NCBI RefSeq assembly: GCF_003967595.1
Contig: NZ_BIFW01000003.1
Span: forward strand, 52,468-76,467
Direction of reading: 5' to 3'
DNA: 24,000 nt
From: Companilactobacillus musae
Lineage (GTDB): Bacteria > Bacillota > Bacilli > Lactobacillales > Lactobacillaceae
The position numbers were made by a program, and so were the translations under genes. This document shows positions 1,614 to 19,978 of the stretch, in pieces. The notes under the pieces were generated by a model. That model saw only the letters and a list, made by a program, of their open reading frames with translations, was not told the origin of the DNA and did no database searches. The number at the start of each line of letters is the position of its first letter. Position 1 is the stretch's first letter.

Positions 1614-1651
1614 TGATTACACTCTCCCTATATACAAACCCAATTTAGTAC

Positions 1652-1715
1652 AAAAAAAGTCACGATCACTTATCCTCATAACCATTGGTAACAACGAAGA
1701 TTTGGTTTCATGACT
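1652..1715 (-). terminator. Long imperfect hairpin plus T7 run (minus strand) between eda and kdgK; possible terminator or attenuator
   Basis: On the minus strand AGTCATGA (1715-1708) pairs with TCGTGACT (1665-1658, one G-U pair) around a ~42-nt structured interior, followed by TTTTTTT (1658-1652). No convincing sigma-A promoter lies between it and the kdgK start, so its function is uncertain. Confidence 0.3.
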
Positions 1716-1733
1716 TAATTTCTATAAAGACAA

Positions 1734-2387: not shown

Positions 2388-3344
2388 TTATTCCTCAACC
2401 TCATTTTCTAAATAATATTTATTTAATTCTTCTCTAGTCGGATAGCCATCGTTATCTCCATGCGTTTGAACTTGTAAAGATCCAATCGCATTTCCACGTC
2501 TAGCAGCTTGATTATACCCTTTTCCTTCAAGCAATGCCGTAATAACTCCTAATGCATATCCATCTCCAGCTCCAACGGTATCTACAACTTCGGAAACTTC
2601 GAAGCCTGGAACAATCCAACTATGACCATCTTTTGTTTTTACATATGACCCTTTAGGACCTATTTTTACAAAAACAGCTTTTGCCCGACCATTTAAATAA
2701 AAATCAGCTATTTTTTCTGGATCATCAGAACCTGTCAAAATTTTTCCTTCATCCTGTCCAGGTAAAACAATATCCGCATAAGATGCCAAACGATTTATTG
2801 TTTTAATCATTGTTTCCTTATTTGGCCACAAATCTGGTCTCAAATTAGGATCAAAAGTTAGCGTTATTCTCTTTTTGTTAAGCATTTTTGCTAAAAGAAT
2901 ACTTGTTTCTAATGTCTTTTTTGACTTCGATGGAAAAATCCCCGTTAAATGAGCTATTTTTAAATCACTCATATCAATAGAATCAATAACACTAGAGTCA
3001 ATATTTGATGCAGCTGAATTTTTTCTAAAATTAAAAACATCTGGATCCCCATGACTAATCAATTGTTTCATTTGATACCCAGTCATATATTTATCTGTTC
3101 CCAGTAAATATTTAGTACTAATTTTTCTTTTATTCAATTCATTTCTTATAAAGTCCCCTTGTGGATCATCTCCAACTTGACCGATATAGTCCACAGAATG
3201 TCCTAATCGCCTTACTCCAACAGATACATTTAGTTCTGCCCCACCAAAAACCTTATTAAAATGAACGGAATCAGAAATAGTTTTATCAACATCTGTAGAA
3301 CAGAACACCACAAGCGGTTCTCCAATGGTTAAAAACTCACTCAT
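2388..3344 (-). CDS. Second PfkB-family sugar kinase (KDG-kinase-like paralogue)
   Basis: PfkB signatures GGAELNVSVG and DTVGAGDGYALG. The track start at 3353 is a GTG. The ATG at 3344 (MSEFLTIGEP...) has AAGGTGG 5 nt upstream, so I call that as the start. Confidence 0.75.
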   Translation of the reverse strand: MSEFLTIGEPLVVFCSTDVDKTISDSVHFNKVFGGAELNVSVGVRRLGHSVDYIGQVGDDPQGDFIRNELNKRKISTKYLLGTDKYMTGYQMKQLISHGDPDVFNFRKNSAASNIDSSVIDSIDMSDLKIAHLTGIFPSKSKKTLETSILLAKMLNKKRITLTFDPNLRPDLWPNKETMIKTINRLASYADIVLPGQDEGKILTGSDDPEKIADFYLNGRAKAVFVKIGPKGSYVKTKDGHSWIVPGFEVSEVVDTVGAGDGYALGVITALLEGKGYNQAARRGNAIGSLQVQTHGDNDGYPTREELNKYYLENEVEE

Positions 3345-3413
3345 TTTGTCCACCTTTTATAAATAAATAAAAAATCTCCCTGAAGATTTTGACTCCAAGA
3401 AGATTCCTTATAA

Positions 3414-4751
3414 TTACAATCCTTTCTTGATTTGTTTTCTATTCCAGAACATCATTCCGGCCACAATAATTGTAAGAATGGCTGCACCAATAATTGGTAG
3501 ATTTACAGTTCCTTCATATACTATCCATGCTAATGGACTAGCAGCAAAATCAATACTTGCGACTGATGAAGTTCCAGCAGGAATCAAGCTAGATTCAACG
3601 ATTCTTACAGCTTTAGTAAATATACCAGCTAAGGCAGTTGCTGAAAGAACACCTAATACCAAACTAACAATACCTACTAATAATGTCTTTAAAACATTTC
3701 CCTTAGTATATGGAAGTACTAATGGGAAGATATAAATTAATCCAGATAGACTGGCCAATGGTAGGAATTCGTTACCAGGAATAACAACAGATAGGAACAA
3801 GATAATAGGAATTAATAGTAAACTAGCAACCAATGTAACAGGATGTCCAATTACTAAAGCTGGAGTCATACCAATATTGAATTCTCTATCTTTAAATCTG
3901 TTCTTAATAATTTCTTGTGTACGTTTTGAAATTGGTGATAATCCTTCGATGAATAATCCAGTGATCTTAGGGATCAATACCATAACGGCGGCTAGAATAA
4001 CACCTAATTGTAAAATCTTGGCAACTGGATAATGTGCCAAAGCACCAATCAACATACCAATAATTACACCTAAAACAATTGGATCACCTAAAACACCGAA
4101 TTTCTCTTTCATTTTATCAGCATCGATATCTACCTTATTAAGTCCAGGAATACGATCTACAATCCAATTTACAATAACTGCAAATGGAATAAAGCTGACA
4201 CAAAACGCTTGCGGGATAGAAATTCCCTCTAGATCTTTACCATAAAATGCTTCAACCTTCTTTTGAGATCTATCTGCACCAACTAAAGTAACAATAATAG
4301 TTATAACAGCAGCGAATAATCCCCACCAGAAGTTCTTGGTAGCAAAGTAAACAATTGAACCAATAAAAGCAAAGTGCCAATAGTTCCAAAGGTCAATATT
4401 CAATGTCTTTGTAGTTCCAATAACTAACATCAAGACATTAACCAATAGACCTAATGGAATAATAATTGCACCTACTGATGTGGCAAAAGCAACTTGTGAA
4501 GCAGCAGGCCAACCAATATCCAATGTATATAAGTGTAGATGATAAGTTTTTACCATCGCATTAACAGCAGGTCCAATGTTATCTGATAACAATTGAGTAA
4601 CTACACTCAAACCGACAAATCCAACACCGACTTTAAGACCTGAAACTAATGATTTTCCCCAACCCATTCCGATAAGTAGACCAAGAATCAGAAAGATGAT
4701 TGGCATCATTACACTAGCACCTAAAGACATAATGTAATTTATTACAGCCAT
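3414..4751 (-). CDS. PTS galactitol-family EIIC (GatC-like) membrane permease; no cognate EIIA or EIIB in the window
   Basis: 445-aa polytopic ORF. Blocks recalled from E. coli GatC are conserved: DIGWPAAS (GatC DVGWPGSS), NIDLWNYWH (NVDIWNIWH), LEGISIPQ (LEGIAIPH), GMTPALVIGH (GLDPALLLGH), IPGNEFLP (VPGNQVLP). RBS AAGGGGGG. Confidence 0.8.
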   Translation of the reverse strand: MAVINYIMSLGASVMMPIIFLILGLLIGMGWGKSLVSGLKVGVGFVGLSVVTQLLSDNIGPAVNAMVKTYHLHLYTLDIGWPAASQVAFATSVGAIIIPLGLLVNVLMLVIGTTKTLNIDLWNYWHFAFIGSIVYFATKNFWWGLFAAVITIIVTLVGADRSQKKVEAFYGKDLEGISIPQAFCVSFIPFAVIVNWIVDRIPGLNKVDIDADKMKEKFGVLGDPIVLGVIIGMLIGALAHYPVAKILQLGVILAAVMVLIPKITGLFIEGLSPISKRTQEIIKNRFKDREFNIGMTPALVIGHPVTLVASLLLIPIILFLSVVIPGNEFLPLASLSGLIYIFPLVLPYTKGNVLKTLLVGIVSLVLGVLSATALAGIFTKAVRIVESSLIPAGTSSVASIDFAASPLAWIVYEGTVNLPIIGAAILTIIVAGMMFWNRKQIKKGL

Positions 4752-4789
4752 GTTTTACCCCCCTTAGAGCATCTATGACATTTATTGAA

Positions 4790-5617
4790 TTAACGTACTA
4801 AATATCCACCATCAACAGGAATAATTGCACCATTGATATAAGCAGCAGCATCACTTGCTAAGAATACTGCAGGTCCCATCAATTCATATGGTTCTGCCCA
4901 GTGACCCATAGGAATTCTTCCAAGAATTTCATCGTTACGTGACTTATCTGCACGAATTGGAGCAGTATTTTCAGTCTTAATGTATCCAGGTGCAATGGCA
5001 TTAACAGTAACGTTATAAGCACCCATTTCTGATGCAAATGCTTTTGTCAAACCAGCAACACCATGTTTTGAAGCTGTGTATGAAGGGATAAACTTACCAC
5101 CTTGGAATGAAAGCATTGAACCAATATTGATAATTCTTCCTGATTTTTGTTCAGCATATACTTTTGAAACTTCTAGTGATAAGTGATATACGGCGTTCAA
5201 GTTAATATTAATTACTCGATCCCAATCCTCATCTTTTGATTCCAAAATTGGATTACGTTTGATCATACCAGCATTATTTACCAAGATATCAATATGTCCA
5301 AATTTATCAATTGCAGTATCTACAACTTTTTTAGCAGCACCAGGAGCAGTCAAATCCAAATCCATAAATTCTACTTTTTGACCAAGACTTTCGATTAGTT
5401 CACGTGTGTTGTCCCATTCCTTTTTACCAAATGTAGGAATAAAAATATCAGCACCCGCTCTAGCCATAGCAATTGCATAACCTTGTCCTAAGCCCGTGTT
5501 TCCACCAGTAATGATAGCAACTTTACCTTTTAGACTAAACTTACTCATACCAAAATTATTTTTTAGTTCCTCTTCGTGTTGACGAATTTCTTCTGCTGTT
5601 TCATGAATTTCTGACAT
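4790..5617 (-). CDS. kduD: SDR-family 2-dehydro-3-deoxy-D-gluconate 5-dehydrogenase (KduD-like) with a 23-aa acidic N-terminal extension
   Basis: GKVAIITGGNTGLGQGYA cofactor loop, NNAG, and the S...YxxxK catalytic motif (YTASK). Strong RBS AGGAGGA lies 7 nt before the ATG at 5617. The internal ATG at 5548 has no RBS. Confidence 0.8.
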   Translation of the reverse strand: MSEIHETAEEIRQHEEELKNNFGMSKFSLKGKVAIITGGNTGLGQGYAIAMARAGADIFIPTFGKKEWDNTRELIESLGQKVEFMDLDLTAPGAAKKVVDTAIDKFGHIDILVNNAGMIKRNPILESKDEDWDRVININLNAVYHLSLEVSKVYAEQKSGRIINIGSMLSFQGGKFIPSYTASKHGVAGLTKAFASEMGAYNVTVNAIAPGYIKTENTAPIRADKSRNDEILGRIPMGHWAEPYELMGPAVFLASDAAAYINGAIIPVDGGYLVR

Positions 5618-5644
5618 TTCAGAATCCTCCTAAAAGTTTTTGCA

Positions 5645-5673
5645 TTTCTTAATAAGAAACCTCATTTCTTATT
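5645..5673. promoter_or_regulatory. TTTCTT/AAGAAA inverted-repeat array; candidate operator (IclR/KdgR-type) in the kduD leader
   Basis: TTTCTT(5645-5650)-AAT-AAGAAA(5654-5659)-CCTCA-TTTCTT(5665-5670). The larger 9-bp perfect inverted repeat is AATAAGAAA (5651-5659) / TTTCTTATT (5665-5673). It lies just downstream of the candidate kduD promoter. Confidence 0.35.
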
Positions 5674-5682
5674 TATGAATAA

Positions 5683-5711
5683 AGTGTAAATCATTATTTC
5701 TCCATTTGCAA
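5683..5711 (-). promoter_or_regulatory. Candidate sigma-A promoter of the kduD operon
   Basis: On the minus strand: TTGCAA (5711-5706), 17-bp spacer, TACACT (5688-5683). The -35 hexamer is itself palindromic. Confidence 0.4.
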
Positions 5712-5755
5712 GCCCTTTCATATTTTTTACTAATCTGATATAGTCCAATATTAGG

Positions 5756-5761
5756 TATAAT
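5756..5761 (+). promoter_or_regulatory. Candidate -10 box (TATAAT) for the IclR regulator gene
   Basis: Perfect TATAAT 23 nt upstream of the ATG at 5784, with RBS AGAGAGG between them. No good -35 at 17 bp. Confidence 0.3.
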
Positions 5762-5783
5762 GTAAGAAAAGAGAGGCATTATA

Positions 5784-6539
5784 ATGGCTGAAAAACATCT
5801 ATATGGCACCGTTTTGCTGAAGGCAAAGGAAATCTTAGACTTTATTTCCAATTCAAAAACTGCACCTGGGTTAAAAGAAATTAGTATGAATGTTGAAATT
5901 TCTAAACCCACTGTTCTTAAAATCTTACAAACTCTTGAATATTGTGGATTTGTAAGATCATATGGGACTATAAAGAAGTATTACTTAGGTACTATATTTT
6001 TGAAATATGGCGATCAAGTCGCTCAAGAATTTGATTTAGTTAAGATAGCGACCCCATTCTTAAATGATTTACGGGACAAAACTACAGAAGCAGTCAATCT
6101 TGGCATCGTTGAAGATGATAAAGTAGTACTTTTAGCCAGAGCTAAAAGTACTAATAGTATTCATTTTGATTTGGAATTGGGTGGTGCTATGGATATGTAC
6201 TCTTCTGCAATGGGAAAGGCCATTCTGGCACATTATCCAGATGATAAATTAATTGACTATCTTAATAAAACACCTCTTAAACCTAAGACCCCAAATACTA
6301 TTGTTACTCGTGAAGATTTTCTGAATAATATTACTGAAATAAAAAAAGATGGTTACGCCATCGATGATATTGAAAATCAGGAAGGCGTCTATTGTATTGG
6401 ATTTCCACTGATCAAGGGAAATCAAATCTTTGGTGGATTTAGCATTAGTGCTCCTGTATTTAGAATTGACGATAAGAAACGTCAAGAATGGATTGAATAT
6501 GGTTTACAAACTGAAAGAAAAATTTTGAGTAATTTTTAG
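5784..6539 (+). CDS. IclR-family transcriptional regulator (KdgR-like), divergent from the kduD operon
   Basis: 251 aa. N-terminal winged-helix region (LKEISMNVEISKPTVLKILQTLEYCGFV) followed by an IclR effector-binding domain (GKAILA, GVYCIGFP). Position and orientation match KDG-regulon repressors. Confidence 0.85.
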   Translation: MAEKHLYGTVLLKAKEILDFISNSKTAPGLKEISMNVEISKPTVLKILQTLEYCGFVRSYGTIKKYYLGTIFLKYGDQVAQEFDLVKIATPFLNDLRDKTTEAVNLGIVEDDKVVLLARAKSTNSIHFDLELGGAMDMYSSAMGKAILAHYPDDKLIDYLNKTPLKPKTPNTIVTREDFLNNITEIKKDGYAIDDIENQEGVYCIGFPLIKGNQIFGGFSISAPVFRIDDKKRQEWIEYGLQTERKILSNF

Positions 6540-6634: not shown

Positions 6635-7372
6635 TTATCCCAATACCTTTTTAACAATTTCATACAACTTCTTAACATCCTCTGGTCTAGTTAAGCCGTC
6701 ATCACCAATGATTGAACTATATACATGAGGAATAATCTTCTTAACTCCGGCATCAACCGCAATTTGTAGAATTTCTTCAAAGTTATCTAAGTCAATTCCA
6801 CCAGTTGGTTCCAAATTAAAGTCATATTTAGCACAAGCTTCAGCTACGGCTTTGAACTCTACCTCATGTTTCAAACCACCCATTGGGAAGAATTTAATTG
6901 CTGTTCCACCCATATCTTTTAATAAGGCAATGGCTGTTTCAATTGGAACTTCAGCAGCAGGTTGTTGACTGCTTAAAGGACCTGTAGCAATATTTACCAA
7001 GCCTACTTTTCCGGTTGGTGAAACTAATCCATTAATAACTGTTTCATCTTCACCTAACAAAGCACGTGATGTTCCAACACCTGTAAATACTTGATTGACA
7101 TGTTGTGGTTTCAAAACTTTTGATACGCGGCTAACCATTTGACTTTGCTTGGGATCACCAGCGCCTAAACCAACTGAAATAGCATTTTCAACTTCTGCTT
7201 GATACTTCTTCATATCTTCAATGGCAGCTTCGTCTGTATCATAATTTTTTGTCAAAACTCCGACTACTGTGTGACCTTCAGCTGCGGCATAAATATCTTT
7301 AGCATTCTCCACAGAACCTGCAAGTACATTAATAGCAACTCTATCTTTATAATAATTAGGAATTAGTTTCAT
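6635..7372 (-). CDS. KDGP-aldolase family protein (former DUF1341); not homologous to Eda
   Basis: 245 aa. I recognise the blocks NVLAGS..NA..IY.AAEGH..VGVL.KNY, VGLGAGDP.QS.MV, PQHVNQVFTG, FPMGGLKH and EPTGGIDL.N as this family. It is the last gene of the operon. Confidence 0.7.
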   Translation of the reverse strand: MKLIPNYYKDRVAINVLAGSVENAKDIYAAAEGHTVVGVLTKNYDTDEAAIEDMKKYQAEVENAISVGLGAGDPKQSQMVSRVSKVLKPQHVNQVFTGVGTSRALLGEDETVINGLVSPTGKVGLVNIATGPLSSQQPAAEVPIETAIALLKDMGGTAIKFFPMGGLKHEVEFKAVAEACAKYDFNLEPTGGIDLDNFEEILQIAVDAGVKKIIPHVYSSIIGDDGLTRPEDVKKLYEIVKKVLG

Positions 7373-7387
7373 CTTTATATAAGCTCC

Positions 7388-8494
7388 TTAGTCCTTTTGA
7401 ATTTCTTGTAATCTATTTACAATTGCTTTCATTTCATTCGCATCAACTGCACGAATGTCAAATTCAATAATACCTTCGTTTGCTCTGTATTCACGTGTAT
7501 AAATAGCAGGATCGCCTTGCTTTAATTCTTTAGTTACTTCTTTAGCGTCTTTCTTAGAAGTTTCTTTAACGGTCACGGCTGCACGATAAATTTCACGACC
7601 TGCACCATCTTGAACTTCCTTAGCCTCAATATCAGGAACCTCATTTAAATCTTTTAAGAATGGTGCTAATCTTTGACGCATATGTTCACCATCTTCTGGT
7701 CCAATCTTGAGATAGCGTTCAATTGCCGCAGTTAAACCTAAGATATTTTCCTTACCGATCTTCATGGCACGGCCAATACCTTTCTTTTGTAGACGAATCC
7801 AATTAATATACTTAGCTTTACCATAAACTAAGCCTGATGCTGGTCCTTCTAGTGCTTTGGCACCACTAAAGATAATAATATCTACGCCTAGATCCAAATA
7901 TTTCTTCATATCTTCTTCTGCAGCAGCATCAAGAATCAATGGCAAATTATTTTTATGAGCTACTTCTACAGCTTCTTTGACGGATAGCATACTCTTTTGA
8001 ACTGTGTGGTGACTCTTTACATAAAGTACTGCTGCTGTTTTATCAGTTATCATCATTTCAATATGTTCTGGGGTACACATATTAGCATAGCCAGCTTCGA
8101 CAACATGTCCTCCACCAAGACTAATCATTACTTCTTCTGGAGTACCATAGTCGACATTGTGACCTTTAGGCATAATGATTTCACGTTTTTCAAAACGTGG
8201 ATCATTTGCATGATAAACATGATACATACTCCCCTGACCAATTAGAGCTGCAACAGACATTGCAATACCAGCTGAAGCCGAATTTACGACGATTGCATCT
8301 TCTGCACCCAATAATTTTGCTAAATGTTTTCCAGTTTGAACGTCCAAATCTGCCATTTCAAAGAAATGTGTATCACCAAATTGTTGAGCATCAATAACAT
8401 CTTCAGGCACTTGTGAAACACCCAAAATTGTCATCTTACCACTAGCATTAATAACCTTCTTTAATCCATATTCACTGTAAATATCTTCAGCCAA
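7388..8494 (-). CDS. DgaE/SelA-like pyridoxal-phosphate-dependent ammonia-lyase (D-glucosaminate-6-phosphate ammonia-lyase family)
   Basis: GLKKVINASGKMTILGVS N-terminal block and the PLP-lysine motif FSGAKALEGP. The track start at 8530 is a TTG inside the upstream gene. The TTG at 8494 sits 1 nt after that gene's TAA and 8 nt after GGAGG, giving MAEDIYSEYGLKKV. An alternative ATG lies at 8521. Confidence 0.75.
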   Translation of the reverse strand: MAEDIYSEYGLKKVINASGKMTILGVSQVPEDVIDAQQFGDTHFFEMADLDVQTGKHLAKLLGAEDAIVVNSASAGIAMSVAALIGQGSMYHVYHANDPRFEKREIIMPKGHNVDYGTPEEVMISLGGGHVVEAGYANMCTPEHIEMMITDKTAAVLYVKSHHTVQKSMLSVKEAVEVAHKNNLPLILDAAAEEDMKKYLDLGVDIIIFSGAKALEGPASGLVYGKAKYINWIRLQKKGIGRAMKIGKENILGLTAAIERYLKIGPEDGEHMRQRLAPFLKDLNEVPDIEAKEVQDGAGREIYRAAVTVKETSKKDAKEVTKELKQGDPAIYTREYRANEGIIEFDIRAVDANEMKAIVNRLQEIQKD

Positions 8495-8495
8495 T

Positions 8496-9608
8496 TTACT
8501 TTCCTCCAATTGAATATTCATTACCGGCAATAACCGAATAAATAGGTTTGATTAGCGTATCTGTCTTTCTTTGATTTCCATTTGAATCCGTTAAGACTTT
8601 TTCACCTTTTTCAACATTGAAAATTGTTAGATCTCCATCGTATCCTAAACGTAGAGAACCTTTGCTTTGTAAGTTGAAATTATCAACTGGAGCCCAAGTT
8701 ACCATTCTAATTACTTCTGGTAGTGAGTAGCCAATCAACAACATCTTTTCCAAAGTCGTTGCCATATCATAAACGGGACCATTGGCCCTATTTCTATGAT
8801 AAATATCGGTACTTACTGACTTAGGAATCAAGCCTTCATCACGTGCAATTTCTCCAGTTCTGAAGTTAAAACTGTCTGTTCCATGGCCAACATCAAAAAT
8901 CACACCACGATCATAAGCATCGAGTACGAAGTCCTTAATATGACCAGTCTTATCTAACATTCCATTAGGTTTTCCATTATAGGCATGTGTTAAGATATCG
9001 TCTCTAGACATTGAGTTTAAGACATCTTTTAATTCTGGGGGATTAGCTCCAACGTGAACCATAATTGGTAAATTAAGTTGTGCCTGAAATCTTTTAGCTT
9101 CCAATAGTGGTTTAACATCGTTATCAACAACTACTGAATGACTCTCTCTTACCTTAATACCAACAATGAAATCTTGTAATTCCTTCACTGCATCATAAAG
9201 AGGAGCTTTTTGAATTCTAGTAATATCGCCTAACTCATCCTGAGCCAAAATACCAGTCTTAGAAATATTAATCATTGCTAAAACATTAGTTTTCTTATCA
9301 CGAGTAATCTTATAAAAATCGCGAATATTGTCTGCACCAGTTGAACCAGCATCAATAACCGTTGTTACCCCAGTTAAATAACCATCTTTATCGGGATCAT
9401 CATAATAGAGACTTAGCTTTTCATAAGAATGTACATGATCATCAATCCATCCTGGAGTTACATATGATTCATGATGTAAATCAATCGTCTTTTTAGCAGT
9501 TATTCCCTCTAATTTTTCTCCGACTGCCGTAATTTTTCCATTTGTAATTGCAATTTCAATTGGTTGATTACGTTCTGTTTTACCATTCTTGATATATAAA
9601 TCTTCCAT
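8496..9608 (-). CDS. Amidohydrolase-superfamily metallo-hydrolase (deacetylase/deacylase-like)
   Basis: 370 aa. N-terminal beta-sandwich (IKNGK...ITAVG), HxH metal motif (WIDDHVHS), and later MVHVG, HAYNG and FDVGHG metal/substrate blocks typical of the amidohydrolase TIM-barrel superfamily. Confidence 0.8.
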   Translation of the reverse strand: MEDLYIKNGKTERNQPIEIAITNGKITAVGEKLEGITAKKTIDLHHESYVTPGWIDDHVHSYEKLSLYYDDPDKDGYLTGVTTVIDAGSTGADNIRDFYKITRDKKTNVLAMINISKTGILAQDELGDITRIQKAPLYDAVKELQDFIVGIKVRESHSVVVDNDVKPLLEAKRFQAQLNLPIMVHVGANPPELKDVLNSMSRDDILTHAYNGKPNGMLDKTGHIKDFVLDAYDRGVIFDVGHGTDSFNFRTGEIARDEGLIPKSVSTDIYHRNRANGPVYDMATTLEKMLLIGYSLPEVIRMVTWAPVDNFNLQSKGSLRLGYDGDLTIFNVEKGEKVLTDSNGNQRKTDTLIKPIYSVIAGNEYSIGGK

Positions 9609-9660: not shown

Positions 9661-10323
9661 TTAAACTGCAATTGGGAAGAAGAAGCCGAAAAGCATTGCA
9701 CCTAAGATTGCACCACCTGGCAATGGTTTCTTCCAAGCATAGAATATAGCAGCTCCGGCAGTTGCACCGATACCAATTGGAATTGATGCTGAAATGGCAC
9801 TCAAGATGATCAATGGTCCTAAGAAACGACCAGTTTCATTACCAGCACCCATCATAACGTCAGCTCCAAAAGTTGCATTTGACTGTCCAACCGTATACTT
9901 ACGAACAAAGAAAATTATCAAACCGATAATAATTCCAATCACTAATCCTGTAAGTAAAGCTAGTGGAAAGTTTTTAACAGGGGCAGTTAGTCCCATACTT
10001 AACATAATTGCTGGAATACCAATTCCAACACCAGTTAAAATCGAACCACCTAAATCCAAGATACCTACAAGTGAACCTTCCAAAACACGAGCAAATAAGA
10101 AACTTGCACCAAATGCTGCGGCAGGTCCAAATGACTTACCAGTTAATCCAGCCTTCAACATGGCTACAATAGCAACTTCATTAAAGGCACCCACTCCATA
10201 ATTTACATACATTGATGTTCCGGCAAAAACACCCATGGACATTAATCCGACAATAATAGGAAATGACCAATCTGCGTACCAGAAACTTTTTGCATGTTCT
10301 AGATCTTTCAAATCATCTTGCAT
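9661..10323 (-). CDS. Glycine-rich polytopic membrane protein, DUF4310-like
   Basis: 220 aa, almost entirely hydrophobic and Gly/Ala-rich segments (about 6 predicted by eye). RBS AAAGGAGGAA. The family name is from memory of this conserved gene neighbourhood. Confidence 0.65.
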   Translation of the reverse strand: MQDDLKDLEHAKSFWYADWSFPIIVGLMSMGVFAGTSMYVNYGVGAFNEVAIVAMLKAGLTGKSFGPAAAFGASFLFARVLEGSLVGILDLGGSILTGVGIGIPAIMLSMGLTAPVKNFPLALLTGLVIGIIIGLIIFFVRKYTVGQSNATFGADVMMGAGNETGRFLGPLIILSAISASIPIGIGATAGAAIFYAWKKPLPGGAILGAMLFGFFFPIAV

Positions 10324-10342
10324 GAGTTATTTCCTCCTTTAA

Positions 10343-11122
10343 TTATTTTGGTGTCACTACTGAATGCATATTGTTCAACCATGTTGGAATTCCGACTTTA
10401 AACGCCTTCAACATGTTGATATCGAATCCTCTGAAGAAACCACTCAAAACAAACAATGCTATTGTGGCGATAAGAATGATTCTTGTAATTCTCGTCCAAC
10501 CTAATTCATCGACACCTTTACCAACTAAAATTCCTAAAACAACACCAGGAACTGCATTGCCCATTATTAAAGCGGCTACACCGCCAAATACTGTTCCAAA
10601 CAATCCAGAACGACGACCAGCATCAATGGCAGCTAACCAGAAAAGAATAGGCATAACCATATTGATCAATGTATCTGCGGCTGGAACCAAAACTTTAACC
10701 GCTGTAACTTGTAACGATGCGGGAATTGATGCTGAAGTTACATTTAAAAACGGAACCAAGACTGCACCAATAATTCCACTAACAATACCCATCTTTTTAG
10801 GATTGTGGACTGTTTCCGCAACGTTTTTATTTTTTAATAAAAGAATACTTGCCGCCCAGTTTGGAATAACACGATGAGTTATATCCTGTGTAAAAGCACC
10901 AGCACCAACTGTTGATGCCCATGCATTGAAGAAGAAACCTAATCCAAATGAAAAGTGAGAAGCTGGATCGCCTTCTGCGGCATTCATTTCTCCAAGCGTT
11001 CTAAATGCACCTAGAGCTTGAACTGTTGGTGCATTGAACATACGAGCAGCACCAACACCGGCAGCAAATCCAACAGCAAGTCCAACAATTATGGACTCAA
11101 TTAAGATTGTTAATATTTGCAT
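10343..11122 (-). CDS. Polytopic membrane protein, DUF4311-like
   Basis: 259 aa with multiple hydrophobic segments. Its ATG overlaps the stop of the upstream gene (TAATG at 11120-11124), implying translational coupling. Confidence 0.65.
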   Translation of the reverse strand: MQILTILIESIIVGLAVGFAAGVGAARMFNAPTVQALGAFRTLGEMNAAEGDPASHFSFGLGFFFNAWASTVGAGAFTQDITHRVIPNWAASILLLKNKNVAETVHNPKKMGIVSGIIGAVLVPFLNVTSASIPASLQVTAVKVLVPAADTLINMVMPILFWLAAIDAGRRSGLFGTVFGGVAALIMGNAVPGVVLGILVGKGVDELGWTRITRIILIATIALFVLSGFFRGFDINMLKAFKVGIPTWLNNMHSVVTPK

Positions 11123-11493
11123 TATTTATCGCCCCTTAATAATTTCGTGAAATCAGGTATATTTATATGATCTGGTGACGGTATTTCATTATCAATAAAA
11201 TTAATATCAGACAATTTAACAGCATTTAATTCAACATCTACATCCAGAGTTAATTTGTAATTAACTCTGGTTCTCTTAAAGAAGAAGAACAGAAACTTTT
11301 CTTGATAAGAGACTCTTTCTGCATAAAGTACTCTGACTTCCTTAGGAATTATTTGTAAGGTTACTTGAGATTCATCTTTAATAACTTCATTACGAATATT
11401 ATTTAAAGCACTGGCAAACGCACGCTGCCTAGTTTCGCCATCACCAGAGACACGAACTGTTTTCACAAATTTTTTATTCAACTCTGAACTCAT
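11122..11493 (-). CDS. Small soluble protein, DUF4312-like
   Basis: I call the start at the ATG at 11493 (MSSELNKKF...), which lies 8 nt after GGAGGG. The 146-aa track ORF begins inside the upstream gene. No transmembrane segment, and alternating beta-type sequence. Confidence 0.6.
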   Translation of the reverse strand: MSSELNKKFVKTVRVSGDGETRQRAFASALNNIRNEVIKDESQVTLQIIPKEVRVLYAERVSYQEKFLFFFFKRTRVNYKLTLDVDVELNAVKLSDINFIDNEIPSPDHINIPDFTKLLRGDK

Positions 11494-11524
11494 TTCTTTC
11501 ACCCTCCAAATTAAAGCTCTATCT

Positions 11525-11887
11525 TTATGCCTTGTCAGGATATTGTTTTGCAAAAGTTTCAAGTAACTTCTTGCCTAATTCTTCCTTATCCATAAATCCA
11601 AATCCAAGAACTGTTTTTCCTTCTTGAATAGCTGTGATGCCTTCTTGAATTGATCTCATACCATGTCTTTCAGGATATCCATATTGTGTATTAGCGGTAA
11701 TAGCACCTGCACCGCCTGAACCACAGAATGAAATTCCCATATCGGCATTCTCATCATGCATAACTTTTCCTAGACGCATATCGGCTCCCATTCCTGGAAC
11801 AACAATTGCTTGCCCACCTGCATCTTCAATTCCTTTAGCAACTTTTTGGCCTTTACCCATTCTGTCTGCAATAACAACTTTAATCAT
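11525..11887 (-). CDS. Glycine-rich SFCGS-motif protein (DUF2620 / E. coli YhfU-like)
   Basis: 120 aa, with MIKVVIAD... at the N-terminus and GISFCGSGGAGAITANTQ in the middle. RBS AGGAGGA. Confidence 0.7.
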   Translation of the reverse strand: MIKVVIADRMGKGQKVAKGIEDAGGQAIVVPGMGADMRLGKVMHDENADMGISFCGSGGAGAITANTQYGYPERHGMRSIQEGITAIQEGKTVLGFGFMDKEELGKKLLETFAKQYPDKA

Positions 11888-11899
11888 AATAAATTCCTC

Positions 11900-12244
11900 C
11901 TAATTATTTTCTATAGCATTTTCAAAATGTATTGATAAAACAAATGGTTCTGATGGTGCTAAATTTCCGATTTTATTAGTAATATCTTTAGCAATGTTTA
12001 ACGCCGTATCAGACACTCCGCTGAATAATGATTCATCAACTGGATCTAATGATTGATTATCTTTTGATCTCATTACCATCTCTCCTAAGTGATTTGCCAA
12101 TACAGTCAATTGGAGATCAGTTAGATTCAAGTGATTCGTCGTGAGTTCTTTCATTGCAAATTTAAAAATACTGTATGTTTCATCCGGATATTTTGATTCT
12201 TTAATAATTTTGGCTATCTCGGGAATATCCCATTTATTTTGCAT
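11900..12244 (-). CDS. Stand-alone PRD-domain protein (E. coli YhfY-like)
   Basis: I call the start at the ATG at 12244 (MQNKWDIPE...), preceded by AGGAGGGG at 8 nt. It overlaps the regulator's 3' end by 11 nt. Two PRD-type histidine contexts: LANHLGEMVMRS and LSIHFENA. Confidence 0.7.
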   Translation of the reverse strand: MQNKWDIPEIAKIIKESKYPDETYSIFKFAMKELTTNHLNLTDLQLTVLANHLGEMVMRSKDNQSLDPVDESLFSGVSDTALNIAKDITNKIGNLAPSEPFVLSIHFENAIENN

Positions 12245-14105
12245 CAACTTGACCCCTCCTAGTATCAGATAAATGTACATATTCTAATATTGCGTTTATT
12301 TCTGATTCATTAATATCTAATCCATACTGATTAAATGTTTCCTTTAATTGCTTCTTGATCACTTGATTCGATGCTTGAATATTGTTTGTATCTTTATATT
12401 GTTCATTGAATTTAATTCGATGTATTGCCATAAATATATGAAGCATTAAAGCATCTTTATATTCATCAGAAACCTTATATTTCAATAAATTCATAACATC
12501 CTCATAAATCGAAAACATTGTCATTATCATTTCTCGGGATAACTTTTTAAATGAAGCATTGTTTTCAATTTTTGTTATCGAAGAATCAGGTTCCTTTTTT
12601 AAAGTATCAGGATTAACTTTTAAGATATTCGCTACCTTATTTTTTATTTGCTCAATATCTTGGCTAGTAGGTAATGGACTAACTTGAATTAACGGTGCAT
12701 TCAGATCAGTTAAGTCGAAGATACTAATTACCAAATCCGGTTTAAGTTTGTTTATTTGCTTTTTTGCGGCAATGAGTGAAGTAAAACCAGCAATTTCAAT
12801 GTTCGGAATATTTTCTTCTATTTTTTGTTGTATCAGATTAGTAACACCTAAACCTGTTGAACAAACATAAACAACTCTCACTTTTCTTTGATTGTTATGA
12901 ATCCTTTGCTCTGAAACCATAAAATGCAAAGCTAAAAATGAAACGAAGGAATCATTTACTATTGTTGGACTTGAAGAAACCTCTTTGATACAAACCTTAT
13001 ACAAAGCATTGAATAAACCTGGATAATTTGTCTTGATATCTTTTACAAACGGATTATATTCATTGGTAAATTGATATTTGCTATTAAATTTGCTCATTAA
13101 GTGCGATAACAAACTATCGAATAATTGCTTATCTTCACTGAATGGCTGGTTAACTTCCTCGCTAACTTCATTGATAATCAACTTTGTTAGAGTTACCAAA
13201 TTATCATCTTGAGGAATCGTTTGACCACCGTTTATAACATATTGATATTCGTCTTGATACAATGGAAAATCATATTCATCAAACATTCGTTTAAAGAGCT
13301 GAAAATCAAAAGTATCAAGCTTAACATCATTAAAATTTATCTCTTGGTAACTGTTAATCGGTTTATTAATACTTAACCTAGCAATAGAGATAGCTAATCG
13401 ACAAGAAATAGTTAATATATCGTTATAATCTAATTCTGAATTATCTTTATCAATTAGCCTGCTAGCATGTGTCAAAACTCTTTTTAGGATATATTCAAAT
13501 TCATTATTGAGACCTAGCAATAATCCAGTAACCTCATTAGAATTTAATTGCAATAAGTGAATAACCGAGTATATATCAAATTTTGAGATCACATCTTGTA
13601 TTGAAGATTCCATATATGATCTAATTGAGATTTCGCTACCAGTTAAGGTATATCCATAAAAATCTTTATGCTTTAGATGTAAATCAAATGTCCGCAAATT
13701 TTCTTTTATTTTGTCCAAATCATTCAACATCGTACTTTCACTGACATTTAATTTATTTTGAAGCTGTTGTAAAGTAACAGTCTGGTCTGTCAATGAAAGT
13801 AAAAATACTATTTGTAGTATTCTTTTTTGTGGAGCTGGATAATACTCAAATCCCGTTTGACCAATTAATTGTTTCCTAATTTCTTGTCTCACAGTTAACT
13901 CATTTTTTAACCAAATGCCAACGTGAGGTTTAGTTTGAAAAACTTGATTATCTTCTTTAAACCATTCTTTCAAATCTTTTAAATCATATTTAATTGTTCT
14001 AACACTTACACCATATATATCCGAAAGCCTTTGAATAGTAATTGGATCATCCCGATTCAACAATAGATAGACTATTTTGATTTCCCTATCTGTTAATTGC
14101 ACCAT
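12234..14105 (-). CDS. PRD- and EIIB-domain transcriptional regulator (MtlR/LicR/ManR-like; usually auto-annotated as a BglG-family antiterminator)
   Basis: 623 aa. It has two N-terminal HTH/Mga-like modules (aa ~1-160) and PRD-like regions containing LLSHLMS and LALHFMVSEQR. An EIIB(Gat)-like module follows with VRVVYVCSTGLGVTN (Cys415, codon 12861-12863). The ~100-aa C-terminal region carries LMLHIFMAIHRIKFNEQ. RBS GGAGG. Confidence 0.8.
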   Translation of the reverse strand: MVQLTDREIKIVYLLLNRDDPITIQRLSDIYGVSVRTIKYDLKDLKEWFKEDNQVFQTKPHVGIWLKNELTVRQEIRKQLIGQTGFEYYPAPQKRILQIVFLLSLTDQTVTLQQLQNKLNVSESTMLNDLDKIKENLRTFDLHLKHKDFYGYTLTGSEISIRSYMESSIQDVISKFDIYSVIHLLQLNSNEVTGLLLGLNNEFEYILKRVLTHASRLIDKDNSELDYNDILTISCRLAISIARLSINKPINSYQEINFNDVKLDTFDFQLFKRMFDEYDFPLYQDEYQYVINGGQTIPQDDNLVTLTKLIINEVSEEVNQPFSEDKQLFDSLLSHLMSKFNSKYQFTNEYNPFVKDIKTNYPGLFNALYKVCIKEVSSSPTIVNDSFVSFLALHFMVSEQRIHNNQRKVRVVYVCSTGLGVTNLIQQKIEENIPNIEIAGFTSLIAAKKQINKLKPDLVISIFDLTDLNAPLIQVSPLPTSQDIEQIKNKVANILKVNPDTLKKEPDSSITKIENNASFKKLSREMIMTMFSIYEDVMNLLKYKVSDEYKDALMLHIFMAIHRIKFNEQYKDTNNIQASNQVIKKQLKETFNQYGLDINESEINAILEYVHLSDTRRGQVDAK

Positions 14106-14475: not shown

Positions 14476-15423
14476 TCAATCCAATTTAAAAGAATGATCA
14501 GTAAGCGTAAATCTGTTTTTTATATTATCCGTTAAACGAATCGTTCTATCTTTGTAAACAAAAATCAAACCTATAGAATCATTATCTAATAATTCCAAAG
14601 TACCTTCATAATCATTATAAAATCCTAAGCTAGACCAAATCTCGCCATCGATTGATCTCGGACTTACAACCGTGACACCCACTAAATCAGTTTTTACTGG
14701 ATATCCCGTCTTAGGGTCCATAATGTGATGGTAACTGTGACCTTTCTTATTTAAAAATCTTTCATAAATACCAGAGGTCACAATTGAATAATCTTGTGTT
14801 TTTAAGACTCCTAAATAATCATCTCTTGTATCAAAGGGCGACTGAACGCCTACGTTCCAAAAGCCACTCTCATGCGTGCTCTGGCCTACCAGAAGAACGT
14901 TTCCCCCTAGGTCAATAATTCCTTGATCGACTCCGGTTTCCAGCCATAGTTCCTTGATTGCATCAGCAATATATCCCTTGGCTATTCCACCTAAATCAAG
15001 CTCCATTCCTTCATCTAATAAGTAAACTGACCGATCTTTATCATTTAACATAATACGTCCAGGATTAGTCAATTTTAAACGATGAGCAATTTGCTTATCA
15101 CTCGGAACTTCCGCATCGGAAAATCCTATGTGCCAAAGTTTTACTAAGGGTCCAATAGCTGCGTTAAAGCCATGATTTTCTTGACTAACCCGTACCGCTT
15201 CCTTAACTAGATCATAACTAATCTTAGAAACAGGCACTGCATACTTTCCAGAAGCATGATTGATCGACATAATTTCTGACTCTGTCCGATTGACGGTCAA
15301 TAAGTCTTCACAGTATTGAACCAATTCATAGGCTTTATCAAGAGCTGGTACTTGCCCTTCTTGAAAAACAGTCAATTTAATCTCTGTACCTAATGCATGA
15401 TAGACCTTAGTAAAATTCGACAT
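14476..15423 (-). CDS. apbE: FAD:protein FMN transferase (ApbE family) without signal peptide or lipobox
   Basis: 315 aa. ApbE blocks ALGTEIKLTV, DLGGIAKGY, TSG.YER and HHIMDPKTGYP. The N-terminus MSNFTKVYHALGT has no hydrophobic leader and no Cys. Confidence 0.85.
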   Translation of the reverse strand: MSNFTKVYHALGTEIKLTVFQEGQVPALDKAYELVQYCEDLLTVNRTESEIMSINHASGKYAVPVSKISYDLVKEAVRVSQENHGFNAAIGPLVKLWHIGFSDAEVPSDKQIAHRLKLTNPGRIMLNDKDRSVYLLDEGMELDLGGIAKGYIADAIKELWLETGVDQGIIDLGGNVLLVGQSTHESGFWNVGVQSPFDTRDDYLGVLKTQDYSIVTSGIYERFLNKKGHSYHHIMDPKTGYPVKTDLVGVTVVSPRSIDGEIWSSLGFYNDYEGTLELLDNDSIGLIFVYKDRTIRLTDNIKNRFTLTDHSFKLD

Positions 15424-15468
15424 AATACAACTCCCAATAACAAAATTTCTCAGAAGTTAATCAGTTTA

Positions 15469-17244
15469 TTATGCTTTAACGGATTCATTTTCTTTCAAAT
15501 AATCCAATTCAGCTTCACTGATTAATTCGTTTGTCTTTTCTGTATAATCCTTGATTTGATCATCTGTCCAATCGTAGTATTTAGCCATTTCACTAATTAC
15601 ACCATCTTTAATGCTCTTAATTTCGTCATGGTTAAATAGTAAGTTATTTGTACGACGGAAGAGATAATCTTCTGGTGTTAGAGTCATTTCATTTTCCATT
15701 GAATAGTGCAAACTCAAAGTTTCTGCCAAACTCAATCCAGCAATTGGTTTAACATCCTTAGCTTCAGCAATGACTTCTTCAGTATTTGAACCAAAGATAT
15801 TTGCCATCTTCTCGGCTCCGACTGGATCTACACCTGCGGCAACAGCCTCTTGAGCATACTTTTTGAGTTCTTCTTCAGCGTGATTTGAATCAAAGTCACC
15901 ACCGGAAACTTTGATATTAGCTGAATCAACTGGCTTATAATCACGAGCATATTGTGTATTCATAATTTCAATAATCATCTTCATAGCACCATCAGCCATC
16001 TTACGATAGTCAGTCAACTTACCACCGGCTAAGGTAATCAAACCATCATCAGCACGTTTCAATGAGCTACCTCTAGATACTTGAGAAGCAGTCAACTTAT
16101 GACTACCAGAATCACTAGCACCAGAAACTACATCTGGCTTTTCTTCTTTTTTATCATCTACCGGAGCAGGTTCTTCGGCAACAAGAGGTCTTACACCAGC
16201 CCAACTTGATTCAACATCATCAAGTGTAATATGAGCTTCTGGATACTTCTTGTTGATGATCTTTAATAAGTAGTCAACATCGCCTTGTTCTACCTTAGGA
16301 TGTGTTAAATCACCCTTAAAGTCAGTATCAGTTGTACCGAAGTATGTCTTACCATCTCTTGGAATTGTAAAGATCATACGACCATCATTAGTACCTGATC
16401 CAAAGTATGTTGGCTTTGGTACATTCAATCTAGATTGATCAACGACTAAATGAACACCCTTAGTTGGACGCATTTGAGTCTTAGCTTGATCATGCTTGTC
16501 ATCCAAATCTTTAACAAAGTCTGACCATGGACCTGAAGCATTAAGAACGATCTTGGCTTTAACATCAAACTCTTCACCACTGATCATATCTTTAACAGTT
16601 ACACCGCATGCATTGCCAAATTGATTATGAATAACCTTGACTGCCTTCATTCGGCTGACCATAAGTCCTCCGAGTTCATGAGCCTTCTTAATATTTTCAA
16701 TAACCAAACGAGAATCATTATTCAAGTAATCTAGATAAATTCCACCACCTGCAAGATTTTCAGGATTTAGTTGTGGTTCTAGTTTCAATACTTGTTCTTT
16801 ATTCAAAGTGTAATTAGCATACTTCTTCAAATGTTCTGATTCGTTGATTCCTGCCAAACGATCATATAGATCCATGGCAACTTTTACAGAAAACATTGAG
16901 AATGTCGTTCCAGGTTCATCATAAATTGGTAGCAACATTGGATCTGGTCTAGTTACGTGTGGTGCAACATGTTGAATAACTGCACGTTCTTGGACCGTAT
17001 CAGAAACAACCTCAACATCAAAGCTCTTGAGATATCTGATCCCACCATGAACTAGTCGTGTTGATCTTGATGAAGTACCAGCTCCAAAGTCTTGCATATC
17101 AATCAAAGCTGTTCTCATACCAGCAGCGCTAGCTTGTAGAGCAACACCTGCTCCGGTAATACCACCACCAATGATTAGTAAATCAAGTCTTCTAGTTTTT
17201 AATTTTTTTATTTCTTCTGCTCTACTTTTAATTGAAAATGTCAT
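15469..17244 (-). CDS. glpO: Alpha-glycerophosphate (glycerol-3-phosphate) oxidase, type 1 with internal insert
   Basis: FAD dinucleotide fold DLLIIGGGITGAGVA and GlpD/GlpO core blocks. A ~50-aa insert (VAEEPAPVDDKKEEKPDVVSGASDSGSHKLTASQ...) is characteristic of lactic-acid-bacterial GlpO. I call the start at the ATG at 17244 (GAGGGA 6 nt upstream); the track start at 17268 is a TTG. Confidence 0.9.
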   Translation of the reverse strand: MTFSIKSRAEEIKKLKTRRLDLLIIGGGITGAGVALQASAAGMRTALIDMQDFGAGTSSRSTRLVHGGIRYLKSFDVEVVSDTVQERAVIQHVAPHVTRPDPMLLPIYDEPGTTFSMFSVKVAMDLYDRLAGINESEHLKKYANYTLNKEQVLKLEPQLNPENLAGGGIYLDYLNNDSRLVIENIKKAHELGGLMVSRMKAVKVIHNQFGNACGVTVKDMISGEEFDVKAKIVLNASGPWSDFVKDLDDKHDQAKTQMRPTKGVHLVVDQSRLNVPKPTYFGSGTNDGRMIFTIPRDGKTYFGTTDTDFKGDLTHPKVEQGDVDYLLKIINKKYPEAHITLDDVESSWAGVRPLVAEEPAPVDDKKEEKPDVVSGASDSGSHKLTASQVSRGSSLKRADDGLITLAGGKLTDYRKMADGAMKMIIEIMNTQYARDYKPVDSANIKVSGGDFDSNHAEEELKKYAQEAVAAGVDPVGAEKMANIFGSNTEEVIAEAKDVKPIAGLSLAETLSLHYSMENEMTLTPEDYLFRRTNNLLFNHDEIKSIKDGVISEMAKYYDWTDDQIKDYTEKTNELISEAELDYLKENESVKA

Positions 17245-17300
17245 AGTTCGTCCCTCGTTACTACGCAAAAGATAATCAATTTGATCATCTGCAATGCATT

Positions 17301-18821
<1,521 letters not shown>

Positions 18822-18933
18822 TTATGAAAGAGGTGTGACTAGCTTAGTAGTCCCACAATTGCCACCATCCCTGACGACAAATACTAAGTTAACTTTTATT
18901 AACTCCTAACATAAATCTAAATCTTACTTTCTT

Positions 18934-19869: not shown

Positions 19870-19932
19870 TTTTAACATCCTCCAATAGAAAATTAAGTGA
19901 TAACCAAATCCATAAATGAAATTCATAGTTTT

Positions 19933-19978
19933 AAAATCAATTTTCATTTTCCTAGGCTAAATATTGAAAATTGATTTT
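19933..19978. promoter_or_regulatory. 14-bp perfect inverted repeat upstream of the FabK/NMO-like gene
   Basis: AAAATCAATTTTCA (19933-19946) and TGAAAATTGATTTT (19965-19978) separated by 18 nt, 64-110 nt upstream of the ATG. It could be an operator or a leader RNA hairpin. Confidence 0.4.

Follow-up and report, generated by a model that had tools for sequence, protein, structure and literature searches.

Operon structure

The 24,000-nucleotide (nt) stretch of Companilactobacillus musae DNA analyzed here (the window; contig NZ_BIFW01000003.1 of assembly GCF_003967595.1, positions 52,468 to 76,467) carries on its minus strand one operon encoding, in order, a regulator, a small PRD (phosphotransferase system regulation domain) protein, an SFCGS protein, DUF4312, DUF4311 and DUF4310 proteins, an amidohydrolase, a lyase and an aldolase. 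This report concerns the four genes from SFCGS to DUF4310, the core, and the small PRD gene in front of them. Together they most likely encode a previously unrecognised uptake complex of the phosphotransferase system (PTS) that feeds amino-sugar-acid breakdown in many gut- and insect-associated bacteria.

The SFCGS and DUF4310 proteins of the window show 100% identity to C. musae proteins. The core consists of a 120-amino acid (aa) glycine-rich SFCGS protein (11525-11887, minus strand; PF14272/TIGR03577, 203 bits against a cut-off of 141), a soluble DUF4312 protein of 123 aa counted from its ATG (11122-11493, minus strand; PF14189/TIGR03578, 108 against 90 bits) and two polytopic membrane proteins, DUF4311 (10343-11122, minus strand, 259 aa; PF14188/TIGR03580, 436 against 301 bits) and DUF4310 (9661-10323, minus strand, 220 aa; PF14187/TIGR03579, 348 against 215 bits). 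Pfam E-values of the four proteins range from 5e-59 to 1e-105. The DUF4312 stop codon and the DUF4311 start codon have one base in common (TAATG, 11124-11120 in minus-strand reading), the other core gaps are 31 and 19 nt, and the starts are preceded by GGAGG-type ribosome-binding sites. A sequence-only reading of the window had described these four open reading frames (ORFs) with the same positions, sizes, one-base overlap, gaps and strong ribosome-binding sites, and each of these details was confirmed. It drew the boundary of the unit around four genes, which proved too narrow: the omitted small PRD gene (11900-12244, minus strand, about 114 aa; EF_0829 family, TIGR03582, 95 bits against a cut-off of 69) is equally tightly linked. 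A longer DUF4312 frame of 146 aa with a TTG start, reaching up to 11562, was rejected; it overlaps the SFCGS gene and has no homologue support. Upstream, the operon is bordered by a strong terminator-like hairpin (14472-14437) located after the apbE-family gene in front of it.

All four families have existing entries, as Pfam DUFs and as NCBIfam hypothetical equivalogs (EF_0830-EF_0833/AHA_3911-3914), under the description conserved hypothetical and with neither a function or mechanism nor a PTS link on record. The window genes are full members of the EF_0829-EF_0839 / AHA_3910-AHA_3917 cassette (TIGR03577-TIGR03583), in the same order and with no difference. In a literature search by family names, locus tags, yhf, dga and N-acetyl-D-glucosaminate (GlcNAc1A), no functional study of the module was found.

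Conservation of the module across genomes

All operon proteins were mapped onto 80 genome and 80 metagenome loci, each encoding a DUF4311 relative. The order small PRD, SFCGS, DUF4312, DUF4311, DUF4310 is constant in about 140 loci (82 from genomes and about 60 from metagenomes) of Bacillota and of Gamma-, Beta- and Alphaproteobacteria. Median gaps are 19 nt (PRD-SFCGS), 1.5 nt (SFCGS-DUF4312), 20 nt (DUF4312-DUF4311) and 15 nt (DUF4311-DUF4310), and the SFCGS and DUF4312 genes overlap or abut in 37 of 76 loci. This recurring order and tight spacing is more than chance. The sequence-only reading had taken the four genes as one unit; their invariant order, coupling and co-occurrence support the view that they behave as a single, inseparable module whose products are two soluble proteins and two polytopic membrane proteins. 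The regulator gene lies upstream in Bacillota and downstream in Proteobacteria and the small PRD gene is fixed before SFCGS. Because the small PRD gene stays put while the regulator moves, the conserved core comprises five genes, not four.

Between Lactobacillaceae and Proteobacteria the sequences of SFCGS (65-72% identity), DUF4311 (63-68%), DUF4310 (61-69%) and DgaF, the aldolase (62-72%), are well kept, while DUF4312 (31-47%), the small PRD protein (29-46%) and the regulator (20-27%) are poorly kept. In Providencia stuartii NCTC11800 (locus L061, 9296-9958) SFCGS and DUF4312 form one 220-aa ORF, which may reflect either a genuine gene fusion or an error in the sequencing; the corresponding genes of sister Providencia loci have overlaps of 1-4 nt.

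Genes for the amidohydrolase, the DgaE-family lyase and DgaF adjoin the core in nearly all loci with enough flanking sequence, sometimes grouped together on the far side of the regulator. A minimal cassette of exactly nine genes is found in Chromobacterium between efp and mgsA/serS, and among these nine genes there is no kinase and no canonical Enzyme II. In most cassettes the membrane pair is the only candidate transporter. In Vagococcus acidifermentans the regulator and the five core genes make up a separate operon with unrelated flanking genes. This six-gene operon, and the constant company of a PRD regulator and a stand-alone PRD protein, would fit a transceptor-like membrane sensor whose sole output is the PRD phosphorylation state that controls the regulator, with transport left to unrelated systems. 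We consider such a sensor very unlikely. For sensing, a set of five dedicated structural genes that is subject to very strong purifying selection (61-72% identity between phyla) would be excessive, and the minimal cassettes would then provide neither uptake nor phosphorylation for enzymes that need a phosphorylated substrate.

An extended cassette is present in Enterococcus faecalis (locus L001, 11626-18342) and in similar Enterococcus, Vagococcus and Pseudolactococcus loci. Three genes are inserted between DUF4310 and the amidohydrolase: a Glc/Lac-type PTS EIIC (PF02378, 437 aa), a 99-aa ORF with no Pfam match and a MupG-family 6-phospho-glycosidase. A PfkB kinase stands at the end. The extended arrangement suggests an additional route for a disaccharide-type substrate.

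The module is found in E. faecalis, E. faecium, Klebsiella pneumoniae, Yersinia, Providencia, Listeria, many lactobacilli and insect symbionts, and it is also plasmid-borne; the cassette is absent from E. coli genomes. In E. faecium it has been reported on a transposon, where it is mentioned only as annotated ORFs (PMC11934601). Other mentions in the literature come from expression screens only.

Links to the phosphotransferase system

Every cassette has a PTS-type PRD regulator. The one in the window (12234-14105, minus strand, 623 aa) is composed of HTH_11, Mga, two PRDs, a weak PTS_IIB-like region and a third PRD (Pfam, NCBIfam), and from this architecture it is predicted to be a PTS-controlled activator of the MtlR/LicR/Mga type. 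Activators of the MtlR, LicR and ManR type are switched by HPr and a cognate Enzyme II. The regulators of Yersinia, Chromobacterium and Bartonella cassettes have the architecture HTH_11-Mga-PRD-PRD-PTS_EIIA_2.

Most cassettes from the metagenomes were of the mainstream kind, but HPr itself is the last operon gene in at least five distinct divergent ones (L094, L111, L118, L122 and L143). It lies directly after DgaF on the same strand and carries the His15 motif GLHARPA (L143 and L145 share one version). In L118 the HPr gene (11277-11549; PF00381, E 7e-22) starts 11 nt past DgaF. The cassette HPr proteins seem to be without the regulatory Ser46 context of Bacillota HPr, reading 'GKKLIALMRLG' in place of what we take to be the usual 'KSIMGVMSLG'. 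Paralogues of the L118 type, lacking this context, would suggest a dedicated phosphocarrier.

A 56-kb plasmid of Bartonella sp. HY761 (NZ_CP104889.1) carries the nine cassette genes followed by a 671-aa fusion of HPr and Enzyme I (HPr-EI), and the remainder of the plasmid has no other PTS component. These ten genes occupy L167, 7630-17420. An HPr-EI fusion with 59% identity is found beside the cassette in an alphaproteobacterial metagenome-assembled genome. To our knowledge, Alphaproteobacteria generally lack sugar-PTS permeases. The alphaproteobacterial cassettes bring their own energy-coupling proteins. The rest of the Bartonella plasmid contains a type VI secretion system, iron-uptake genes and genes for TonB-dependent, MFS and ABC uptake, and an inverted duplication of a repA-relE/parE-parA-stability block lies immediately upstream of the cassette (L167, 1-7085).

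Two further neighbourhoods may be coincidental. In Enterococcus ratti (L029, 4750-6686) an apparent housekeeping ptsH-ptsI pair is located directly upstream of the cassette regulator. In several Enterobacterales (L056, L072, L149 and L154, near 16 kb) an NPr-like (ptsO-type) gene is located a few kb downstream on the opposite strand.

Genetic linkage to Enzyme I and HPr and to regulators with PRD and EIIA domains, as expected of the PTS Enzyme II class, was found for the module, and a PTS-like function is well supported by this context.

Downstream enzymes and probable substrate

The three enzyme genes follow DUF4310. The first encodes an amidohydrolase/deacetylase of the EF_0837 family (8496-9608, minus strand, 370 aa; TIGR03583, 508 bits), for which the closest solved structure is 2ICS. 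The second encodes a pyridoxal phosphate (PLP)-dependent ammonia-lyase of the DgaE family (7388-8530, minus strand, 380 aa; TIGR01437, 552 bits). The last gene of the operon encodes a DgaF-type 2-dehydro-3-deoxy-phosphogluconate (KDPG, also KDGP) aldolase (6635-7372, minus strand, 245 aa; PF07071), which at 388.8 bits passes the cut-off of 300 bits of the NCBIfam KDPG-aldolase equivalog NF047796.

The window lyase was aligned to PDB entries 7LC0/7LCE with residue roles taken from the literature (PMC9529869). It keeps H162, H163, R301, R332 and R346, and R226 is changed to K. Arg301, Arg332 and Arg346 form the cluster that binds the 6-phosphate; since these arginines are kept, the substrate must be phosphorylated before the lyase step. 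In Salmonella it is the PTS DgaABCD that phosphorylates the substrate for the homologous DgaE/DgaF pathway (PMC9529869). In the cassette described here the five core proteins are the only ones without an assigned role.

The presence of the amidohydrolase points to an N-acylated substrate, and the proposed role of this enzyme is de-N-acylation of the imported phospho-sugar acid. A seven-bladed beta-propeller lactonase gene (PF10282) lies between the aldolase and the regulator in Yersinia aleksiciae (L062, 14572-15795) and in Klebsiella pneumoniae (L168, 13504-14658); these enterobacterial genes hint that the substrate may arrive as a lactone. From the amidohydrolase, the lactonase genes and the DgaE/DgaF chemistry we infer that the substrate is probably an N-acylated amino-sugar acid, for example N-acetyl-D-glucosaminate or its lactone. 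A non-phosphorylative route for N-acetyl-D-glucosaminate is known in marine bacteria (PMC9537276, PMC12017989).

The SFCGS protein

The AlphaFold2 (AF2) model of SFCGS, for which 28 sequences were aligned, shows a beta-alpha protein of five units and has a mean confidence score (pLDDT) of 93.7. In a Foldseek search of the PDB, the best 45 matches were all RpiB/LacAB or RpiB-like proteins (best E 6e-5, TM-score 0.56-0.72), and no PTS EIIA or EIIB was among the structural matches listed. The SFCGS profile gave a single match among PDB sequences, an RpiB, at the Cys loop (E 1.2). By hhalign against E. coli RpiB (E 2.9e-4), 'GISFCGSG' falls on 'GILICGTG' and Cys55 on the catalytic Cys66. In Pfam, weak secondary matches were to LacAB_rpiB and, along the whole protein, to DUF2620 (E. 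coli YhfU); the score against PF02502 is 12.5 bits, below the gathering score of 24.7. On the basis of the model, SFCGS can confidently be assigned to the RpiB/LacAB fold. That it resembles no PTS family, as the sequence-only reading had it, stood for both sequence and fold, but a claim of no resemblance to anything does not survive this assignment.

C55, S57, R9 and R78 do not vary across 129 SFCGS sequences, and K12 is nearly invariant. Cys55, in the motif SFCGSGGAG, sits at the C-terminal end of a strand and is followed by a glycine-rich loop and then the N-terminus of a helix. There is no invariant His in the same 129 sequences (position 75 is H, Y, F or S). With RpiB/LacAB isomerases (PF02502) SFCGS shares the fold, the 'CG(T/S)G' loop and an acidic residue after strand 1. 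It differs in being about 30 residues shorter and in that genes for membrane proteins and a PRD protein always accompany its own. His99/Asn100 of RpiB are not kept, the aligned positions being variable Q/E. SFCGS ends at residue 120, so that the C-terminal helix of RpiB, which takes part in sugar-phosphate binding, is missing entirely; the phosphate-binding arginine region of RpiB is R133-R141 (E. coli RpiB numbering). From the conserved cysteine we propose that SFCGS may serve as a Cys phosphocarrier, equivalent to an EIIB.

The relationship to isomerases also allows a different reading of the module, in which DUF4311/DUF4310 would be an ion-coupled or facilitative heteromeric carrier that imports the unphosphorylated acid, SFCGS a cytosolic RpiB-like isomerase or epimerase for an intermediate of the pathway, possibly helped by DUF4312, the kinase would be encoded elsewhere, and PRD and HPr would be regulatory (catabolite control). 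In favor of it, SFCGS has structural relatives only among RpiB/LacAB isomerases, whose Cys, Ser/Thr and Asp positions it retains; nothing in the membrane proteins resembles an EIIC; PfkB kinase genes are found next to the window operon and within cassettes of the Enterococcus type; and the marine GlcNAc1A route shows that such an acid can be degraded without prior phosphorylation. We nevertheless regard this arrangement as unlikely. The minimal cassettes encode no kinase, and the arginines kept in the DgaE-like lyase place phosphorylation before deamination. SFCGS lacks both His99/Asn100 and the phosphate-binding C-terminal helix of RpiB, and a path from deacylase to lyase to aldolase needs no isomerase. 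In addition, a regulator of the PRD/EIIA type requires a cognate Enzyme II for sensing, of which no other is present, and alphaproteobacterial cassettes have their own HPr-EI.

DUF4312 and the small PRD protein

DUF4312 is fast-evolving, with 25-40% identity between orthologues. Its only invariant residues are P50, E65, F67 and R74; there is no His or Cys among them. Because of this lack and the fast divergence we take DUF4312 to be probably non-catalytic, and propose that it acts as an accessory or adaptor subunit. Profile matches of DUF4312 to PDB entries (RecA fusions and a tandem haemoglobin) were spurious, inflated by repeats, and were discarded. A dodecin-like fold, which the sequence pattern of DUF4312 brought to mind, is not claimed here.

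All 77 orthologues of the small PRD protein have H52, M56, R59 and H106. H52 lies in an 'H...M..R' motif, and H52 and H106 are both canonical PRD histidines. Exchange of phosphoryl groups between PRD histidines and both HPr and EIIB cysteines is known from BglG/BglF and LicT. The role proposed for the small PRD protein is that of a phosphoryl relay or a sensor partner.

The membrane proteins DUF4311 and DUF4310

Both membrane proteins are rich in glycine (10.8% in DUF4311 and 15.0% in DUF4310), and by hydropathy each has several hydrophobic spans together with long amphipathic stretches, in agreement with their earlier description as glycine-rich and polytopic. The invariant polar residues of DUF4311 (147 sequences) are R27, R41, E45, N47, D52, H56, Q79, D80, H83, R84 and N189; those of DUF4310 (128 sequences) include N48, R79, E82, D90, N162 and R166. 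In both proteins the invariant polar and charged residues fall within the amphipathic stretches, which would be expected of a substrate-binding permease, not of a membrane anchor. We propose from these patterns that DUF4311 and DUF4310 are permease subunits.

At E<=10 the two proteins match only their own families in Pfam. An exhaustive phmmer search with DUF4311 against 1.84 billion cluster representatives returned about 100 entries, all DUF4311 and mostly fragments, with no fusion to DUF4310 and no other domains. The 147- and 128-sequence alignments were compared by hhalign to ManY, ManZ, SrlA, SrlE, the EIIC-GAT protein of the window and the E. faecalis EIIC, with probabilities of at most 2% (at most 1% for EIIC-GAT, E. 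faecalis EIIC, SrlA and SrlE). In these comparisons the membrane subunits thus showed no sequence similarity to EIIC families outside the mannose type (Glc/Lac PF02378, Gat/Asc PF03611 and Gut). A comparison of E. coli YhfT to DUF4311 gave a marginal hhalign probability of 10%.

Whether the two membrane halves are paralogues was a question raised by the sequence-only reading; at the sequence level no such relationship was detectable. BLASTP between them gave an E-value of 0.54, the hhalign probability was 0.1-0.7% with small and with enlarged alignments, and the score of the N-terminal DUF4311/DUF4310 match was within the block-shuffle null. A 'GAF...FG.(G/S)F.F' pattern that appears by eye to be common to both proteins was within noise. 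A head-to-tail AF2 model of DUF4311 and DUF4310 (block alignment) was poor, with a mean pLDDT of 55.6 and values of 28-57 in the DUF4310 half, and this model gave no match in the PDB by Foldseek (E >= 0.47, TM <= 0.19).

It is conceivable that the membrane pair does not transport and that the core is instead a membrane-associated, PTS-dependent kinase or enzyme complex, comparable to DhaKLM, that phosphorylates its substrate at the expense of HPr-derived phosphoryl groups, with the substrate entering by another way. The linkage to HPr, EI and PRD proteins would fit this, a separate canonical EIIC stands beside the core in Enterococcus-type cassettes, and SFCGS resembles enzymes that bind sugar phosphates. 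We judge it quite unlikely, however. Most cassettes, among them the self-contained plasmid and the Chromobacterium cassette, encode no other transporter, and two polytopic proteins of about 480 aa in total with many invariant polar residues are hard to see as anchors. DhaKLM is similar as a non-canonical user of HPr-derived phosphoryl groups with dedicated phosphocarrier domains; it is soluble, is not a transporter and has no domains homologous to those of the core. No operon protein has a Pfam match to Dak1, Dak2 or EIIA-Man-like domains, and domains like those of DhaK, DhaL or DhaM are absent.

A proposed PTS Enzyme II and its mechanism

We favor the reading that the core and the small PRD protein form a PTS Enzyme II of a new family for an N-acylated amino-sugar acid, and estimate its probability at roughly 60%. 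In this model DUF4311 and DUF4310 would form a heteromeric permease in the membrane. Phosphoryl groups would be transferred from phosphoenolpyruvate via Enzyme I and HPr, with which a genomic link is observed. Cys55 of SFCGS would receive the phosphoryl group directly or via a histidine of the stand-alone PRD protein, and SFCGS would hand it to the substrate during translocation. DUF4312 would be a non-catalytic accessory subunit. The 6-phosphate of the substrate would then be deacylated by the EF_0837 amidohydrolase, the product deaminated by the DgaE-like lyase to KDPG, and KDPG split by the DgaF aldolase into pyruvate and glyceraldehyde-3-phosphate. By analogy to MtlR and LicR, the PRD regulator would sense the phosphorylation state of the system and induce the operon.

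Several points weigh against this Enzyme II. The universal gene set has no canonical EIIA. Structurally, SFCGS is related to isomerases and not to EIIB proteins, and with Cys55 at the position of the RpiB catalytic base SFCGS could be an enzyme or isomerase. DUF4311 and DUF4310 have no sequence similarity to any EIIC/IID or other carrier family, and the AF2 model of the pair was poor (pLDDT 55.6) and had no Foldseek match. The cassette HPr or HPr-EI could be present only to activate the PRD regulator. Genes resembling 2-dehydro-3-deoxygluconate (KDG) kinases sit in the neighbouring operon of the window. Cassettes of the Enterococcus type have a canonical EIIC, a MupG-type phospho-glycosidase and a PfkB kinase beside the core; because the EIIC and PfkB genes adjoin it, the core is not the sole possible uptake and phosphorylation route in those species.

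By long-standing view, the transporter classification counts seven families of PTS Enzyme II. A more specific version of the proposal is put forward tentatively, as a possibility that we hold to be well short of even odds: an eighth family, made of parts not previously seen in such a role, in which the stand-alone PRD protein would relay phosphoryl groups from HPr to the transporter as the EIIA-equivalent, SFCGS phosphorylated on Cys55 would be the EIIB-equivalent, DUF4311/DUF4310 a heteromeric permease with a fold unrelated to known EIIC/IID proteins and DUF4312 a fifth, non-catalytic subunit, with YhfY/YhfU/YhfT as a second branch that has one membrane protein.

If the Enzyme II proposal is true, one more family would genuinely extend a textbook system. 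Its phosphocarriers would derive from a sugar-phosphate-isomerase fold and a regulatory PRD domain, and PRD domains would be able to act inside a transport chain and not as regulators alone. The function assignment would annotate thousands of 'DUF' genes in a module that is widespread in clinically and ecologically relevant bacteria and highly conserved across phyla. In addition, it would establish a phosphorylative pathway by which gut and other host-associated bacteria use (N-acyl)glucosaminate-type compounds, such as oxidative breakdown products of chitin and glycans.

Comparison with known systems

DgaABCD-DgaEF of Salmonella is the closest functional analogue. Two soluble and two membrane subunits are likewise encoded upstream of homologous DgaE and DgaF, a 6-phosphorylated amino-sugar acid is needed, and the system is PTS-linked. 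DgaABCD belongs to the mannose family (IIA, IIB, IIC and IID), however, and the core is unrelated in sequence to proteins of the ManX/Y/Z type. The candidate phosphocarrier here has an invariant Cys and no invariant His, and the operon has an extra amidohydrolase and a PRD activator; DgaR of Salmonella is a sigma-54 activator of the LevR type. The sequence-only reading had likened the two-plus-two subunit count to a mannose-type PTS. The PTS context held up (PRD/EIIA regulators, HPr, HPr-EI and no kinase), but kinship with the mannose family did not (hhalign below 2%). No Pfam match at E<=10 was found to PF03610, PF03830, PF03609 or PF03613, and hhalign against E. coli ManX, ManY and ManZ gave probabilities of 0.1-1.8%. 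Mannose-type IIB proteins are phosphorylated on His, and neither SFCGS nor DUF4312 has an invariant His. The IIC and IID subunits of the mannose family are related to each other in structure; for DUF4311 and DUF4310 the comparison was one of sequence, with no similarity seen.

In architecture, the closest analogue is the E. coli cluster yhfZ-yhfY-yhfX-yhfW-php-yhfU-yhfT-yhfS (L003, 6936-14345), which may be a sister system. It includes a stand-alone PRD protein (YhfY), a Cys-loop protein (YhfU, DUF2620), a membrane protein (YhfT, 434 aa), the amidohydrolase-superfamily protein Php and PLP enzymes. YhfU matches SFCGS weakly over the full length (E 0.068), and its match to LacAB_rpiB is weak as well. 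The yhf cluster differs in having one membrane protein instead of two, no DUF4312 and other enzymes; it is likewise uncharacterised.

The regulator has the same architecture as those of the MtlR/MtlA, LicR/LicBCA and BglG/BglF systems, in which PRD histidines are established partners of HPr or of an EIIB cysteine in phosphotransfer. In contrast to these systems, a PRD is also present here as a separate, universally conserved small protein inside the transporter block, and there is no canonical EIIA or EIIB.

Neighbouring genes in the window

The window genes at 14476-19947 are unrelated to the core module. All on the minus strand and upstream of the operon, they include an ApbE-family flavin transferase (14476-15423), a 599-aa ORF that resembles glycerol-3-phosphate oxidase by eye (15469-17268), an FGGY kinase that is probably a glycerol kinase (17301-18800) and a protein of the nitronate-monooxygenase family (18934-19947).

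On the other side a second sugar-acid operon adjoins on the minus strand, occupying 597-6539 together with a divergent regulator. It encodes a KduD-like short-chain dehydrogenase/reductase (4790-5617), an orphan Gat/Asc-type PTS EIIC (PF03611; 3414-4751) that lacks an adjacent gene for EIIA or EIIB, a PfkB kinase (2388-3353), the KDPG aldolase Eda (1734-2387) and a second PfkB (597-1613). The divergent regulator is IclR/KdgR-like and lies on the plus strand (5784-6539).

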